Program-made: the position numbers and the translations under genes | Shown here: piece by piece, positions 9,638-53,324 of the stretch | How positions within the stretch are numbered: position 1 is the first letter of the stretch | How the letters are laid out: each line of letters begins with the position of its first letter | The notes under the pieces: model-generated | What the model saw: the letters and a program-made list of their open reading frames with translations, nothing else | Told to the model about the DNA's origin: nothing | Databases searched by the model: none | From: Escherichia coli | Lineage (GTDB): Bacteria > Pseudomonadota > Gammaproteobacteria > Enterobacterales > Enterobacteriaceae | Assembly: GCF_044324785.1 (NCBI RefSeq) | Contig: NZ_CP172127.1 | Strand: one strand, 5' to 3' | Length of the DNA stretch: 64,000 nucleotides

Positions 9638-9653
9638 TTGTATTGTGATCGGT

Positions 9654-9735
9654 AAGCCGGATAAGGCGCTCGCGCCGCATCCGGCAACGATGCCGACAGC
9701 CTGATGCGACGCTGACCGCGTCTTATCAGGCTTCC
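9654..9735. repeat. REP/BIME palindromic repeat cluster
   Basis: gccggataaggcgctcgcgccgcatccggca ... gcgacgctgaccgcgtcttatcaggc. Confidence 0.8.
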
Positions 9736-17524: not shown

Positions 17525-17617
17525 GCCAGTGCCGGATACGGCGTAAACGCCTTATCCGGCCGACAAATGCGCTCCCCGTAGGTCGGATAAGACACGTCAG
17601 CGTCGCATCCGACACCT
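17525..17617. repeat. REP/BIME palindromic repeats in the phnK-phnL spacer
   Basis: gccggatacggcgtaaacgccttatccggcc ... gtcggataagacacgtcagcgtcgcatccgaca. Confidence 0.8.
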
Positions 17618-46579: not shown

Positions 46580-48229
46580 TTACTGATTTTCCTCAATCAA
46601 CAACGCTTCAAGCAAATCGAGATCGTGCAGTAATTTTTGCAGCGTTTCGTTGCTGATCTCCCGCGTGGCGCGCAGGTGGTACAGTTCAGCACGTTCAGAA
46701 CGCAATGCCGCCAGACGGAAGCGACGCTCAAGGTTCTCTTCCTGCACGGAACTTTCAACGTCGTTACGTCCATCGGCGCGACGACGCAGGTTACCAATGA
46801 CGCGAGAACTGACCTCCGTGAGCAGCTGGTTATCGATATTCTCTTCGGTATCCGCCGCCAGACGCTCCTCCATTTTCTGGATCGCCACAATCGCCACTTC
46901 TGCCGTTGCCGCTCGCGCAATACGTTCCTCTTTCAATTGTTGCGAATGGTCCGCGACTTCAATGTGTTGTAGCAGAATAGGCAACATCACCACGCCGACA
47001 AACAGCGAGAAGAGAATGACACCAGCCGCCAGGAATACCAGCTCATAGCGCGCCGGGAAGACGTTACCATCCGGCAAGAGCAGCGGGATAGAGAGCACAC
47101 CGGCCAGTGTGATCGCCCCACGCACCCCGGCGAAAGACGCGATCAGGATTTCTCGTGTGGTCCACGAACCAAACTCCATCGGCTTCTTCTTCAGGAAGCG
47201 GTTGCTGAACTTTTTCATCGTCCACAGCCAGCCGAAACGGACCAGCATCAGCGCCGCATAAATCAGAATGATATCGGTAAACAGCATCCAGATTTCGACG
47301 TTAGGGTCGATTTCTGCCGCCATCAGCGACGTCTCCAGAATACCCGGCAGCTGCAGACCTAACAGCAGGAATACCATGCCGTTAAAGACAAATTCCAGCA
47401 TCGCCCAGGTGCTGTTTGCGCGCAGGCGCATTGCCAGCGGCGCACGGCGCATCACACCGGAGCGGGTGATGGTCATCCCGGCGGCAACCGCAGCGAGGAT
47501 GCCGGAAACGCCAATATGTTCGGCAATCAGATAAGAAGCGAATGGCAGCAAGAACAGTAGAACAATCTGCGTCGCAGGTTCATCACCGCCCCAGCGGCTG
47601 AGGAATCGCAGCGAGCGACCATACAGCCAGCTCACTACAAAACCGGCGAGAATACCGCCAATGGCCACTTTCATAAATTCGACCGTCGCACCGCCGACGG
47701 TGAAGATCATCGTCCCCATCGCCACTGCTACGGCAAACTTCAACGACACCAGGCCGGAGGCGTCATTCATCAACGCTTCACCCTGCAAAATGCCCATGAT
47801 TTTTTTCGGGATGCGCCCTTCGCCAACAATCCCCGAGAGCGCCACAGCATCGGTCGGAGAAAGCACCGCAGCCAGCGCAAAGGCGGGGATCAGCGGAATG
47901 CCCGGCACCACCCAGTAAATAAGGAAGCCAATGCCGACCACGGTGACCACCACCAGCGCCAGCGCAAGGCCGAAAATCTCTCGACCATGTTCGAGAAATT
48001 CACGGGTCGGCGTTTTCCAGCCATCAGCGAACAGCAACGGCGGGATAAACAAGACTAAAAAGAGTTCAGGATCAAACTCCACATGCAAACCAAACGTCGG
48101 CCACGCCAGTAGCGCACCGATGGCGATTTGCATAAGCGGAAGCGGGATCTGAAAGGGCATGACACGAGTGACCACCCCGGACAGCGAGACCACGAGGGTC
48201 ATTATCAGTATGGTGAAGAAGATTTCCAT
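46580..48229 (-). CDS. yjcE: Na+/H+ exchanger-family membrane protein YjcE (CPA1)
   Basis: 549 aa; multi-TM then charged coiled-coil C-terminal tail. Confidence 0.9.
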   Translation of the reverse strand: MEIFFTILIMTLVVSLSGVVTRVMPFQIPLPLMQIAIGALLAWPTFGLHVEFDPELFLVLFIPPLLFADGWKTPTREFLEHGREIFGLALALVVVTVVGIGFLIYWVVPGIPLIPAFALAAVLSPTDAVALSGIVGEGRIPKKIMGILQGEALMNDASGLVSLKFAVAVAMGTMIFTVGGATVEFMKVAIGGILAGFVVSWLYGRSLRFLSRWGGDEPATQIVLLFLLPFASYLIAEHIGVSGILAAVAAGMTITRSGVMRRAPLAMRLRANSTWAMLEFVFNGMVFLLLGLQLPGILETSLMAAEIDPNVEIWMLFTDIILIYAALMLVRFGWLWTMKKFSNRFLKKKPMEFGSWTTREILIASFAGVRGAITLAGVLSIPLLLPDGNVFPARYELVFLAAGVILFSLFVGVVMLPILLQHIEVADHSQQLKEERIARAATAEVAIVAIQKMEERLAADTEENIDNQLLTEVSSRVIGNLRRRADGRNDVESSVQEENLERRFRLAALRSERAELYHLRATREISNETLQKLLHDLDLLEALLIEENQ

Positions 48230-48379
48230 GCGTTCCCTGTTTGCGATGTTTTTTATGATCTGAGAAAGACGTTATGCCTGAATTCTCATTTTTTCAGAAT
48301 ATCGCAAAAGCTCACACAATGTGCGGAGAAAATAAAAACGGGCAGCCATTGCCACCCGTTTTCAGAATCATATGAAAGA

Positions 48380-49729
48380 TTAGATAGCCCAGCCACCCGC
48401 ATAGAAGGTCACCAGCGCCACAGCGATAACGACCGTACCGATGTTCAACTTGCGCCATTCGCCGGAAACCAGACGACCAATCACCAGAGTCGCGAAGCCG
48501 ATCATGATGCCTGTTACGATGTTACAGGTCAGCACGATGAATACCGCCGTAACCAGACCCGCCATCGCATCAACAAAATCAGCAAAGTCGATTTTCGCCA
48601 CGTTGCTCAGCATCAGCAGGCCAACGTACATCAGCGCCGGAGCCGTTGCATACCCCGGAACGAGGTAGGAGAGCGGAGAGAGGAACAGAATCAGCAGGAA
48701 CAGCACGCCAACGGTGATAGCCGTCAAACCGGTTTTACCGCCCGCCGCCGTACCTGCCGCAGACTCGATGTATACCGCTGCCGGAGCCGCACCCACCAGG
48801 CCAGAGAAAACGCTGCTCATGGAGTCAGTGGTCAGTGCCTTCCCGCCGTCGATAATTTGCCCATCTTTATCCAGCAGGTTCGCCTGGCCGGCGACGGCAC
48901 GGATAGTTCCGGTGGCATCAAATACTGCCGTCATCACCAGCGCCAGAACGCTTGGCAGGACTACAGGATTCAGCGCGCCCATAATATCCAGGCTGCCAAT
49001 CAGTGAATTGCCGTTTTCATCGCTCAATGAAGGCATGGCGAAAACACCGGAGAAATGGACGTTAGGATCGAAGATCAAACCGACAATTGAGATACCGATA
49101 ATGGTCAGCAGAATGCCACCAGGGACTTTCAGTTTTTCCAGGCCGATGATCGCCGCCAGACCTACCAGTGACATAATCACCGGGAAGGTCGCGAAATCAC
49201 CCAGCGCAACGGGCAGACCATCAAGCGGGTTTTTAATCACCAGACCGACACCATTCGCAGCAATCAGCAGCAGGAACAGACCGATACCGATCCCCGTGCC
49301 GTGCGCCACACCGTGCGGCAAGTTGCGCAAAATCCAGCTACGGATACCCGTGGCAGAAATGACCGTAAACAGCACACCCATCAGGAACACGGCACCCAGC
49401 GCGACAGGTACGCTAATATGTTGCCCCAGCACCAGACTGAATGCGGTAAACGCCGTCAGGGAGATGGCGCAACCAATCGCCAACGGCAGATTAGCCCACA
49501 GACCCATCACGATAGAACCGAGTCCGGCAACCAGACAGGTCGCAACGAAAACTGCCGCAGGCGGGAAGCCCGCTTTACCCAACATGCCTGGAACGACGAT
49601 AACCGAGTAGACCATCGCCAGAAACGTTGTTAACCCGGCAACCACTTCCTGACGGACAGTGCTTCCACGTTGTGAAATTTTAAACCAGGCGTCGAGTGAA
49701 CCGCCGGTACGCGCTGATGGCGTAGACAT
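48380..49729 (-). CDS. ghxP: Guanine/hypoxanthine permease GhxP (YjcD; NCS2/AzgA family)
   Basis: 449 aa multi-TM. Confidence 0.88.
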
Positions 49730-49789
49730 AAGAAAACATCCCCTGAGAGTTTAATTTTCGTCAAGATGCGTGGCGGACAATCCCCTGCC

Positions 49790-50010
49790 AGCGAAACGTT
49801 ATCTTCCTGCTCCAGGTTTGCGGCAATTTGGTGCGTCGCAAAAAAGCAAACGTTTAGCTCCGCGCATACAAAACGGGTGGTAAAAAAAGCAAACGATTAT
49901 CCGGCGATCATAGCGGCTTTTTCAACCGAAGTTTGCTGCTTTTTTCTCTTTTATTGTCTTGACGATGAAAAACCAGGCAATTGATGCGCAAACGTTATCG
50001 TCGATGCGCA
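49790..50010. promoter_or_regulatory. Cluster of PurR-operator-like motifs (GCAAACGTT) upstream of ghxP
   Basis: gcgaaacgttatc (about 49793), agcaaacgtttagc (about 49846), agcaaacgattatc (about 49889), gcgcaaacgttatcg (about 49989); compare PurR consensus ACGCAAACGTTTGCGT. Confidence 0.5.
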
Positions 50011-50254
50011 AGATTGCAGCGTTATCGAGCCGTATACCGTTCTGGATTGCGATAAAAAATCGTCTGAGATGACAAAAATATTGCGGCTAAAAAGTATACT
50101 TTTACACTGGCGAAGAAACGTCGGTGACATACAATTAAAGCATCAACACCAACCGGAACCTCCACCACGTGCTCGAATGAGGTGTGTTGACGTCGGGGGA
50201 AACCCTCCTGTGTACCAGCGGGATAGAGAGAAAGACAAAGACCGGAAAACAAAC

Positions 50255-50290
50255 TAAAGCGCCCTTGTGGCGCTTTAGTTTTGTGTTTGC
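50255..50290. terminator. Perfect 13-bp-stem hairpin with flanking T/A runs (bidirectional terminator-like)
   Basis: aaactaaagcgcc-cttgt-ggcgctttagttt; a partial second copy of the right arm occurs at 50418..50445. Confidence 0.6.
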
Positions 50291-50299
50291 GGATAATTC

Positions 50300-50445
50300 C
50301 AAAAGAGCTCGATCTGTCCCCTCGCCCCTTCGGGGAGAGGGTTAGGGTGAGGGGAACAGGCAGCACCAGTGCAAACATTTACCCTCACCCCGGCCCCATA
50401 GTTAACGATGAGTCAGCTTGTCCTTGTGGCGCTTTAGTTTTGTTC
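50300..50445 (+). ncRNA. sraL: Candidate small RNA SraL/RyjA in the ghxP-soxR spacer, overlapping the soxR 3' end antisense
   Basis: About 140-nt GC-rich segment with two strong hairpins, ending in ccttgtggcgctttagttttgtt; location matches my recollection of ryjA, whose sequence I cannot verify. Confidence 0.4.
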
Positions 50446-50898
50446 ATCTTCCAGCAAGCGTGCGCCTGTGCCTTCTTCTCCTAAGCGGTCGCCCGGGTTA
50501 CGCAATGGGCAATCACTGCGCGAAAGGCAGCCACAACCAATACATCCGTCCAGTTCGTCACGCAGCGCCACTAAGGTATGAATGCGCCGATCCAACTCTT
50601 CTCGCCATTGGGACGAAAGCTGTTTCCACTCTTTCGCACTTAATGTATGCCCTTCGGGCAACACGCCAAACGCTTCACGAATGGTCGCCAGCGGAATGCC
50701 AATGCGCTGAGCAATTTTGATGATTGCGACATATCGCAACACATCACGTTTATATCGCCGCTGATTGCCACTATTACGGATACTGCTAATCAACCCTTTG
50801 CTTTCATAGAAATGCAGCGCCGATACCGCCACACCGCTGCGTTTCGCCACTTCGCCGGGGGTTAGCAGCGCTTTAATGCGGGGTAATTTCTTTTCCAT
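50434..50898 (-). CDS. soxR: Redox-sensing MerR-family regulator SoxR ([2Fe-2S])
   Basis: 154 aa; MerR HTH and C-terminal Cys cluster [12 protein letters not shown]. Confidence 0.95.
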
Positions 50899-50908
50899 AA
50901 ATCGCTTT

Positions 50909-50936
50909 ACCTCAAGTTAACTTGAGGAATTATACT
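50909..50936 (+). promoter_or_regulatory. SoxR operator (palindrome) within the soxS promoter spacer, with -10 TATACT
   Basis: cctcaagttaacttgagg perfect palindrome between ttacc(-35-like) and tatact, about 50 bp upstream of soxS. Confidence 0.85.
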
Positions 50937-50983
50937 CCCCAACAGATGAATTAACGAACTGAACACTGAAAAGAGGCAGATTT

Positions 50984-51307
50984 ATGTCCCATCAGAAAAT
51001 TATTCAGGATCTTATCGCATGGATTGACGAGCATATTGACCAGCCGCTTAACATTGATGTCGTCGCAAAAAAATCAGGCTATTCAAAGTGGTACTTACAG
51101 CGGATGTTCCGCACGGTGACGCATCAGACACTAGGTGATTACATTCGCCAACGCCGCCTGTTACTGGCCGCCGTTGAGTTGCGCACCACCGAGCGTCCGA
51201 TTTTTGATATCGCAATGGACCTGGGTTATGTCTCGCAGCAGACCTTCTCCCGCGTTTTCCGTCGGCAGTTTGATCGCACACCCAGCGATTATCGCCACCG
51301 CCTGTAG
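50984..51307 (+). CDS. soxS: AraC-family superoxide-response activator SoxS
   Basis: 107 aa, MSHQKIIQDLIAWIDEHIDQPLNIDVVAKKSGYSKWYLQRMF... Confidence 0.95.
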   Translation: MSHQKIIQDLIAWIDEHIDQPLNIDVVAKKSGYSKWYLQRMFRTVTHQTLGDYIRQRRLLLAAVELRTTERPIFDIAMDLGYVSQQTFSRVFRRQFDRTPSDYRHRL

Positions 51308-51312
51308 TTTTA

Positions 51313-52896
51313 TTACCCGCGCGTTAACCCCCGCGCGGGTAATTGCTCCATCCATTGCATAAACACCTGCGGCGGCATCGCCTTCGCAAAGAACCATCCC
51401 TGACAATAGCGCACGCCGCGTTTGCGCAGCCAGTTAACCTGCTCCTCAGTTTCGACGCCTTCAGCGATCGTTTTTAACCCCAGACTGTGCGCCAGCTCGA
51501 TGATGTGTTCCGCAATCAAATGACTGGTTTTGTGGGTGGTCAGCGTCTCAACAAACGATTTATCGATTTTCAAAATATCGACATTCAATGATTTAAGGTT
51601 ATGCAAGTTAGAGTAGCCAATACCAAAATCATCAATTGCCACTTCGTAACCAGCCTGGCGGAAAGCCAGAATAATTGGTGTCATTTTGTCGACATCAAGA
51701 AATGCATGTTCAGTCACTTCAAATTTAATTTGCTGTGGACGCACCGCGTATTGCTCTGTTTTCTGATTGGTTCGCGCTATCAACCGTGACGTATGAAAAT
51801 CGGAGGCCGACAGGTTAATAGAAACATAGCGATCGGCATGTGTTGCCAGGTACGCGCCCAGATCGCGGAAGACATTATCAATAACATAATCAGTTACCTG
51901 TCCGATCATCCCCTCCTTTTCTGCCAGCGGAATAAACTCTGCCGGATTCATTACTTGCCCCTGCTCACCAGGCCAACGTAACAATGCTTCAGCTCCGATA
52001 CATTTTTCTGTTTTGATATCGATTATTGGCTGGTAATAAAGGCAAAGTTGATGTTTTTCGAGGGCGCGTTGCAATTTGCGTTTGGGAGACAAATAGTTTT
52101 GTCGAATACGTAGCCAGAGTAATAACAGAACAAGACTCCCCAAAATACCGGCGGGTAACGCAAAAATAAGATGATTATAAAAATGCGCTATAAGACGTTG
52201 ATATGAAGTCGCAACAATAGCTGCAATCGGGCGTTTTGTCGAATAAACTGTCGCATATAAATAGCCATTTCTTTGTACGATTAAATCATTCAAATGAATC
52301 AGCGGAGAAAACGTTGCTGCCGAGGCCTCGTTGCTTAACGAGAAAAAGGTTTTTGTCACCGTATCATACACACCCCATTGCAATGTCGGATCATCGGACA
52401 TCACTTCACTCCAGAAGAGAGGGTTGATAACCGCCACATAATTTCCCCGCTGCATATAGGTCATTTTATAGCCAGAGAAAAAAGGCGTATCGCGGTAATA
52501 ATAGATAGAAACGTTAGGTTCACGCTTATAATCGGCCGGTGCAATCGTATAGCCGTTTACAGGCGCTATCAGCGATGAGCATAAAAAATGGTTATCACGG
52601 GCATAGATCAATTCATTAATATAAAGATAGCCACGAATAATATTCAACATTCGCTTTTGATGGGCTGGAGTGCAAACTTGCCCCTGATAGCGTTCAGCAG
52701 CATCGCTCACTAAATCTGCCTGGCGAATGACCAGCTCGGATTTATCCAGTGCCAGTTGAGCAAAAGTTTGGAGCTGACTATTCACTTCTGATTTTGCCCA
52801 AAGGAAGGCAATCCATAGCGACAGAATGATGGGAAAGAGAACTAAAAAGATAATGCCCGGCAACGCCAGTAATTGGTGTCGTGCATGATGACTCAT
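51313..52896 (-). CDS. pdeC: Cyclic-di-GMP phosphodiesterase PdeC (YjcC; CSS-motif sensor plus EAL domain)
   Basis: 528 aa from ATG 52896; periplasmic CSS-type domain between two TMs, C-terminal EAL domain. Confidence 0.9.
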
Positions 52897-53324
52897 TGCT
52901 ATCAATTTCCTGCCTGTTTATACCCGGTCATTGCAAGGTGAAAACCCTGGTTACCGACATCTTTAGATAAATCTTACGGTATAAATAGCACTTTTGCCTG
53001 ATTTGAAATTGATACCTTTTTAATGGTCACCTGGATAAAAATAATTCATTGATATTCAAATTAATTTTCTACAGGAATGCAGAGGCGGCGGGAAGATATG
53101 CCCTTAATGCCACTGAAAAACCACATAATCTGTACAGCAATAAAAGTCACGGCCTAATCTGGCTAACAAACAATCAATTGTGATATAGTTCACAAAATTA
53201 ATGAAACAAACAGAGTGTTTCATTTTTGTGTCCTGCAAGCCCCGCGATAGCCAGAGTGTACCACGCCTCCCGTGAACAACGCCGCGCTGTCCAGGGCATC
53301 GGCTCTTTTCAGAGGAATTGTTTG

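Follow-up and report, generated by a model that had tools for sequence, protein, structure and literature searches.

According to the account given in PMC4666352, the BoxC repeat was first noted by Bergler et al. (1992) and was rediscovered by Hoyne and Maher (2000, 2002) as a 'potential intrastrand triplex' (PIT) element, for which the same account cites an absence of promoter and terminator activity (Hoyne and Maher 2002). Holder et al. (NAR 2015; PMC4666352) named the motif TM_ECO and reported that it occurs in 'more than 260 genomes', that it is always intergenic and not found on mobile elements, and that it forms a triplex in vitro, though not detectably in vivo; they saw no link between the motif and mobile elements, and the mechanism by which it is associated with variable loci was called 'unclear'. 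Kaplan et al. (NAR 2016; PMC5100583) described the motif as a G-quadruplex/hairpin group (HPG1) that is intergenic only and lies near 3′ ends. Both the triplex and the G-quadruplex have been shown biophysically on oligonucleotides near-identical to the copy described below (PMC4666352, PMC5100583). Beside soxR, the small RNA SraL and its terminator are conserved in Salmonella, Shigella, Citrobacter and E. coli (Silva et al. 2013, PMC3753932).

The window analysed, meaning the whole stretch of 64,000 nt of E. coli DNA, carried the gene order ghxP - sraL - soxR - soxS, and the same order was annotated in the RefSeq genomes matching it at 99%. In the list of open reading frames, ghxP was located at nt 48380-49729 (minus strand) and soxS at nt 50984-51307 (plus strand), while soxR, at nt 50434-50898 (minus strand), was an intact coding sequence of 154 aa, as it is in the RefSeq annotation of the same allele in USMARC-49610. 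A covariance-model scan of nt 48000-53000 identified a full-length sraL (ryjA) sRNA gene on the plus strand at nt 50142-50282, matching Rfam RF01408 over model positions 1-142 with 153.3 bits (gathering threshold 39; E = 8.9e-36). The last 31 nt of this match were a Rho-independent terminator hairpin, nt 50251-50281 on the plus strand, with a 13-bp stem, a CTTGT loop and a following UUUUGU; by the repeat finder, its arms (nt 50251-50263 and 50269-50281) were 13 nt each and 100% complementary across the 5-nt loop. It was the sole terminator-like site within nt 49900-50700, and was called on the plus strand only by a simple terminator scan. Since the RF01408 match ends at nt 50282, the first hairpin belongs to SraL as its terminator, and the sRNA ends before the GC-rich segment, which lies downstream of it.

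A previous interpretation made from the letters alone, here called the sequence-only reading, had recognised the perfect 13-bp-stem hairpin, which is indeed present, but had placed it at nt 50255-50290; its description of a GC-rich stretch with two internal hairpins agreed with direct reading of the sequence and with the repeat finder. Its proposal that the GC-rich segment is a candidate SraL/RyjA did not hold, as the Rfam SraL occupies nt 50142-50282 and ends at the first hairpin. Comparison of the insert with the SraL model gave no match of at least 39 bits, the only overlap being one of 26.2 bits on the minus strand (nt 50250-50356) that fell on the palindromic terminator. In K-12 MG1655, the counterparts are annotated as ryjA at 4277926-4278066 and soxR at 4277469-4277933, so that the 3′ ends overlap by 8 nt with no spacer between them, and in strains with an empty site the terminator palindrome also overlaps the soxR stop. 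The conservation of SraL and its terminator beside soxR across enteric bacteria (PMC3753932) marks the compact state as ancestral.

Between the SraL terminator and soxR, nt 50285-50419 were occupied by an inserted BoxC-type repeat unit in a decayed form of 135 nt, absent from the empty allele of 342 bp and homologous, by alignment, to the BoxC units at yijF-gldA and fepB-entC. The insert comprised a left flank of 32-34 nt, motif A, a spacer, a remnant of an inverted motif B, and a right flank. Membership of the family was judged by a 34-37-nt motif of three blocks, CCCTC(G/T)CCC(C), a loop and GGG(G)AGAGGG, then TTA or CCG, then GGGTGAGGG(G), and this arrangement was found at nt 50319-50354 on the plus strand (CCCTCGCCCCTTCGGGGAGAGGGTTAGGGTGAGGGG); it belongs to type 'A mm' and, apart from one loop base, agrees with K-12 TM_ECO no. 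7 (PMC4666352, Table 1). The 22-mer core of motif A (nt 50333-50354) lies inside this 36-mer, and 0 chance matches to it are expected in the window. On the minus strand, nt 50379-50391 (TTACCCTCACCCC) were recognised as the remnant of the inverted partner from the inverted repeat and from comparison with the yijF-gldA unit and the 154-160-nt alleles at soxR; the rest of motif B is deleted in the window allele, which retains CCCTCACCCC alone, while the longer soxR alleles also keep AAGGGCGAGGG. The repeat finder and folding both gave two internal hairpins, one formed by CCCCTCGCCCC and GGGGAGAGGG (approximately nt 50318-50341) and the other by GGGTGAGGGGAA and TTACCCTCACCC (nt 50345-50356 and 50379-50390).

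Alignment of the soxR copies with those at yijF-gldA and fepB-entC allowed the full unit to be described. At its left end is a flank of approximately 32 nt ending in AAAAGNGCTCGAWCAG, followed by motif A (TCCCCTCKCCCC-loop-GGGGAGAGGG-TTA-GGGTGAGGGG), a spacer of approximately 28 nt, the inverted motif B (CCCTCACCCC-ga-CCCTCTCCCT-gaaa-AGGGCGAGGGG), and a right flank ending in TTGCC. The full pair is present at yijF-gldA and fepB-entC, whereas motif B is partly deleted in the soxR copies. The insert folds as predicted, and GC-rich shuffles fold nearly as well, the folding signal being modest on the plus strand (z = -1.7) as well as on the minus strand with the terminator included (z = -2.5). Two open reading frames called mechanically span the repeat, one of 67 aa at nt 50281-50484 (plus strand) and one of 118 aa at nt 50022-50378 (minus strand); they encode repeat-derived peptides such as GERVRVRG and are likely sources of spurious gene calls.

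The insert is bracketed by a direct repeat. The repeat finder returned a perfect 22-nt repeat, CCTTGTGGCGCTTTAGTTTTGT, at nt 50263-50284 and 50422-50443 with a spacing of 159, the chance of a perfect 22-mer repeat within 500 nt being of the order of 1e-8 by our own estimate. The duplicated target as a whole is 24 nt long (GCCCTTGTGGCGCTTTAGTTTTGT): the left copy is located at nt 50261-50284, its last 22 nt being those of the right copy in the window, and the right copy, at nt 50420-50443, differs by one mismatch at nt 50421 (T for C) and includes the end of soxR, its last codons with the TAA stop. The two copies agree at 24 of 24 nt in the commoner filled allele, as in FCI48 (segment positions 577-600 and 756-779). 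The second copy of the terminator arm, which the sequence-only reading had set at nt 50418-50445, is thus real with its limits corrected to nt 50422-50443, and the overlap with the soxR stop on the opposite strand was as described (TAA at nt 50434-50436, minus strand). The duplicated 24 bp take in only the final 3 nt of the left arm but all of the loop and right arm, together with the TTTTGT tail. The left copy keeps the full SraL hairpin with its UUUUGU tail, the right copy keeps the soxR codons for ...EDEQN and the TAA stop, and by duplication of the terminator target both the SraL terminator and the last soxR codons are intact; had the unit inserted here without duplication, the terminator or else the soxR C-terminus would have been lost. 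To our knowledge, 24 bp is longer than any transposase-made duplication in bacteria, where such target duplications typically measure 2-14 bp.

Presence or absence of the insert was examined with a 501-bp query spanning the site against 5,426 complete E. coli genomes. The locus was matched in 5,421 of them, and only 157 gave full-length coverage. In the remaining genomes the match was split into two pieces that together spanned 342 bp, shorter by exactly 159 bp, the spacing of the direct repeat; K-12 derivatives, O157:H7 and the most divergent of the lineages listed are among these empty genomes (approximately 97%). When the window, two further filled alleles and an empty allele of the K-12 type were aligned, the empty allele had one copy of the 22-24-nt sequence and the filled alleles had two, bracketing the extra DNA. 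The parts of the soxR unit outside the BoxC core, GTTTGCGAATAATTCCAAAAGAGCTCGATCAG and AAAATCGCCCCCATATTAACGATGAGTCAGCTT, are unique: a query with these flanks alone recovered the same 157 genomes, with one place in each and always at the soxR locus, indicating one insertion point and a single origin. These findings bear out the second possibility that the sequence-only reading had raised, a repeat element that inserted and duplicated its target, in that the segment is missing from approximately 97% of genomes, the site is there 159 bp shorter, and the core belongs to the dispersed BoxC/PIT/TM_ECO family; comparison of the spacer across E. coli genomes revealed a presence/absence polymorphism (157 of the 5,421 complete genomes with the locus).

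Insertion was at the same point in all filled alleles; small indels inside the unit set them apart, giving inserts of approximately 135, 154, 155 and 160 nt. Most filled genomes have the 154-nt allele, FCI48 has 155 nt, and the 135-nt allele was found in the window, USDA-ARS-USMARC-49610 and Z142-6. The 160-nt allele, present in two genomes, contains a slippage duplication of GGGTTA inside the motif; in E. coli WP8-S18-ESBL-07, it reads GGGTTAGGGTTAGGG, with the 6-nt duplication located between motif blocks two and three, which means that this allele is not the less decayed ancestor it might have been taken for. A 20-nt deletion plus one substitution would turn the common form into the 135-nt form, and a single 33-nt deletion in a longer ancestor, not itself observed, would account for it equally well. 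As these lengths result from indels within the unit, the unit was judged not to be under constraint. Among the complete genomes none was identical to the window at the site, the best being 99.0%, and three human-gut metagenome contigs carried the filled allele found in genomes. When the query was built on the 160-nt FCI48 segment, 219 genomes rather than 157 had a place covering at least 80% of it; the extra 62 are assumed to represent full BoxC pairs at other loci.

The insert also behaves as a member of a dispersed, multi-copy, intergenic family, with matches at a median of 15 places in each E. coli genome; the dispersed copies away from soxR share only its positions from approximately 11 to 125. 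All 11 BoxC loci inspected were intergenic, and the soxR copy lies between sraL and soxR. Among 11 E. coli BoxC loci compared for flanking repeats, soxR was the only locus with a direct repeat of at least 11 nt, none being present at the 10 others. Likewise, in 17 units of Pseudomonas (described below), matched flank pairs shared 6.2 nt on average versus 5.5 nt in mismatched controls, which is no excess. The duplication is therefore specific to the soxR event, and a long target duplication as a hallmark of the BoxC family is not supported by these 10 E. coli loci and 17 Pseudomonas units.

Clean empty sites were sought at other BoxC loci and were ruled out at yijF-gldA, tauD/hemB and zntA/tusA. 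The yijF-gldA spacer has a full BoxC pair unit beside the gldA terminator hairpin in approximately 640 E. coli genomes, and in the other genomes examined (K-12 TG1 and GPEC464) the position holds REP/BIME, so that two repeat families appear as alternatives at one site. In the case of tauD/hemB, the K-12 spacer is 107 nt long and contains BoxC, and in approximately 1,800 genomes the spacer measures 39 nt, is unrelated in sequence and holds a plain bidirectional terminator hairpin (ATGCCGGGTT...AACCCGGCAT); because the spacer is exchanged as a whole, this is not a clean insertion. For zntA/tusA, a search for an empty allele found none; in LF82 the BoxC at this site has decayed and a BIME has been added. 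Eight K-12 loci with a solo BoxC were fetched, five of which lie between convergent gene ends (tauD/hemB, frlR/yhfS, zntA/tusA, yjdP/phnP and fimH/gntP), a setting shared by sraL/soxR; REP was directly adjacent in three of the eight (frlR/yhfS, pstB/pstA and fimH/gntP).

Beyond E. coli, the exact 22-mer core GGGAGAGGGTTAGGGTGAGGGG was found in at least 120 stretches of a collection of species-representative genomes, in line with the 'more than 260 genomes' of PMC4666352. The taxa among the matches listed include Alpha-, Beta-, Gamma- and Deltaproteobacteria, Chloroflexi, Elusimicrobia, Desulfotomaculum and others; those in Chloroflexi, Elusimicrobia and Desulfotomaculum were in distant MAGs, and one contig with the 22-mer had been assigned to a Methanomicrobiaceae archaeon, possibly through a binning error. 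Pseudomonas sp. dw_612 accounted for approximately 30 stretches among the matches listed, and the 17 complete units examined in it each had the motif at both ends of a repeat of approximately 160-205 bp, facing outward. In these units the inverted ends run 10-20 nt past the motif, and some loci have tandem modules. The E. coli BoxC pair faces inward, whereas that of Pseudomonas sp. dw_612 faces outward; thus, the motif is a module used in different mosaic repeats. An unexpected observation was a 56-nt match of 89% to the BoxC core, at two places each, in the Campylobacter phages A18a and A11a (MG065686.1 and MG065691.1).

No donor of the 135-155-nt unit was detected in E. coli genomes, plasmids, phages or JGI/ENA metagenome contigs, and a BLAST search with the flanks only, for a second insertion site, returned the soxR locus alone. 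Plasmid matches covering more than about half of the query came from records labelled E. coli that ranged in size from 113 kb to 4.9 Mb, several of them apparently chromosomes; Sinorhizobium, Azospirillum and Rhizobium were also counted in that search, and none of them was among the matches listed. The phage search for the unit gave three partial matches, and the metagenome scan gave the same soxR locus and one probable chimeric contig only. The latter, a human-gut contig of 1236 nt with a coverage of approximately 1.1, carries the filled soxR allele through motif A to GGGGAACAGG and continues into unrelated sequence, and is probably an assembly chimera across the repeat.

Other short repeat families were considered for the insert. 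Using the REP consensus GCCGGATGCGGCGTGAACGCCTTATCCGGCCTAC with up to 3 mismatches across the window, no match was found in nt 50285-50421, and a REP/BIME identity was thereby ruled out; REP-like sequences with 3 mismatches each were observed at nt 9652-9685, 17531-17564 and 61480-61513, and are unrelated to the soxR insert. The ERIC2 primer sequence, standing for the conserved central inverted repeat of ERIC/IRU, was unmatched at 3 mismatches or fewer in the window, which speaks against an ERIC/IRU identity, although a single 22-mer makes a weak test. Thus, of the intergenic repeat families that the sequence-only reading had suggested for comparison, Box C was matched by a 36-mer one loop base from a K-12 copy, and ERIC was not matched. 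A MITE mobilised by a transposase should have constant-length duplications at most copies, and among the copies compared the 24-bp repeat was present at the soxR copy only; we know of no transposase partner for BoxC.

Taken together, the insert at soxR adds a further copy, strain-specific and decaying, to a known repeat family and is not a new RNA gene. We hold it as highly probable that it is a non-coding, decaying BoxC / PIT / TM_ECO copy that entered once, in one E. coli lineage, at the SraL/soxR terminator with duplication of 24 bp, and that it has since been a likely functionless passenger. The segment might instead be, or extend, a functional structured RNA, either a long SraL isoform made by read-through of the terminator or an antisense RNA to the soxR 3′ end, in accord with the reality of the two internal hairpins and the position of the insert directly downstream of an expressed sRNA gene. 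Such a role is exceedingly improbable, however: the insert matches no Rfam family, apart from the sub-threshold 26-bit match on the palindromic terminator, the SraL terminator upstream of it is intact, its folding z-score is only -1.7, it is present in only 157 of 5,421 genomes and carries indels inside the structure, and the motif is cited in PMC4666352 as having neither promoter nor terminator activity (Hoyne and Maher 2002). The structured antisense RNA to soxR put forward in the sequence-only reading is likewise not supported for the insert, which has no Rfam match and varies by indels among the carrier strains. Recruitment of the BoxC unit as a spacer between convergent genes, as a structured 3′ UTR or a roadblock insulating soxR and sraL transcription from each other, would be in keeping with the removal of the SraL/soxR overlap by the insertion, and it accords with the convergent setting of five of the eight K-12 solo BoxC loci examined and with the restriction of the motif to intergenic sites near 3′ ends (Kaplan et al., PMC5100583). 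We regard it as quite improbable, for the unit decays by indels at the soxR locus, the earlier tests summarised in PMC4666352 gave the motif no terminator or promoter activity, and a BIME or a plain terminator interchangeably takes the same position at other sites, which fits permissive insertion sites better than a required function. A lack of function of the BoxC unit at soxR is most likely.

The polarity of the event, which would be insertion and not deletion, rests on the distribution of the alleles and on the conserved terminator. Structured DNA between direct repeats is readily lost by precise deletion. Holder et al. read the presence or absence of BoxC as instability or deletion (PMC4666352). 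The filled allele might accordingly be ancestral, replication slippage from one 24-bp repeat to the other, across the hairpin-rich segment, having deleted that segment precisely and left the empty allele. This order of events is very improbable given that approximately 97% of genomes, in all identity bands, are empty, that the SraL terminator beside soxR is conserved in Salmonella, Shigella and Citrobacter (PMC3753932), and that all filled alleles share unique flanks and closely related sequences. Moreover, a 24-bp duplication needs an insertion or duplication event anyway, so that deletion would change only the timing.

Returning to insertion as the preferred reading, the absence of a clean empty site at the other BoxC loci compared means that the mechanism has to be inferred. 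The entry point would be the palindromic terminator common to SraL (plus strand) and soxR (minus strand) at their overlapping 3′ ends, where a one-off replication or repair event at the hairpin, such as a template switch or a staggered break followed by fill-in, may have introduced the unit; the event would be visible to selection only since the duplication preserved both genes. An event of this kind is favoured over a transposase routinely making 24-bp duplications, because 24 bp exceeds transposase values, the duplication is absent at other copies, and no donor was found. A broader possibility is that the soxR allele is a snapshot of how BoxC/TM spreads, by structure-directed insertion 3′ of terminator hairpins with a duplication of approximately 24 bp, a footprint that would normally decay and would have been kept here by selection on both copies, the one as SraL terminator and the other as soxR stop. 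This is unlikely; if true, it would show directly, and for the first time, that a motif conserved across bacterial phyla is mobile, and the 'genomic instability' reported near such motifs would be insertion activity.

As read from the alleles, SraL would be unchanged by the insertion, the 8-nt antisense overlap between SraL and soxR would be abolished, and the two genes would no longer overlap. The soxR transcript would be left without an adjacent complete hairpin and would have to cross the repeat, approximately 150 nt more, before reaching the distal hairpin, which the minus-strand fold retains. For annotation, SraL should not be extended into the repeat, open reading frames called across it are to be regarded as spurious, and the sraL/soxR 3′ overlap is split by the repeat in approximately 3% of E. 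coli genomes. The carriers and non-carriers are natural isogenic-like variants in which it can be tested if separating convergent genes with a common terminator alters soxR or SraL expression. The three other sites compared (yijF-gldA, tauD/hemB and zntA/tusA) show wholesale spacer replacement or an added BIME; for the BoxC/PIT/TM family, the soxR locus provides a filled and an empty site that pair cleanly and have exact junctions, along with decay alleles that form a datable series.

Among the known systems, SraL/RyjA (RF01408; PMC3753932) is the adjoining gene and contributes the first hairpin of the studied feature as its terminator, but the insert lies outside the RF01408 model match and outside the annotated K-12 ryjA. 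REP/BIME elements are, like the BoxC unit, short palindromic intergenic repeats located 3′ of genes and polymorphic among strains, and a BIME and a BoxC unit take the same yijF-gldA position in different strains, although the insert has no REP consensus. MITEs such as ERIC/IRU resemble it in being small and non-coding, with an inverted-repeat architecture, a filled/empty polymorphism and a flanking direct repeat; they differ in that the duplication at soxR, at 24 bp, lies beyond the 2-10 bp usual for transposases and that the other BoxC copies compared are without flanking duplications. With HPG1 (Kaplan et al., PMC5100583), the core GGGAGAGGGTTAGGGTGAGGG is identical and the intergenic location near 3′ ends is the same; that study proposed a structural switch with a regulatory role, whereas the soxR locus shows no support for regulation because the copy is strain-specific and decaying. 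The closest relative is BoxC / PIT / TM_ECO itself. Table 1 of PMC4666352 lists 23 K-12 copies, none of them at the soxR locus, in agreement with the empty K-12 site, and neither a soxR/yjcD term nor a target duplication occurs in the text or supplementary material of Holder et al. (PMC4666352). Motifs of type A are frequently paired with an inverted partner, and the soxR copy further differs in that this partner is mostly deleted and in that the unit is bracketed by a 22-24-bp duplication, undescribed in PMC4666352 and absent at other loci. In common with the published copies, the 36-mer at nt 50319-50354 has the three blocks CCCTCGCCCC - GGGGAGAGGG - TTA - GGGTGAGGGG, and the soxR copy, which retains a remnant of the inverted partner, is intergenic and belongs to a multi-copy family.
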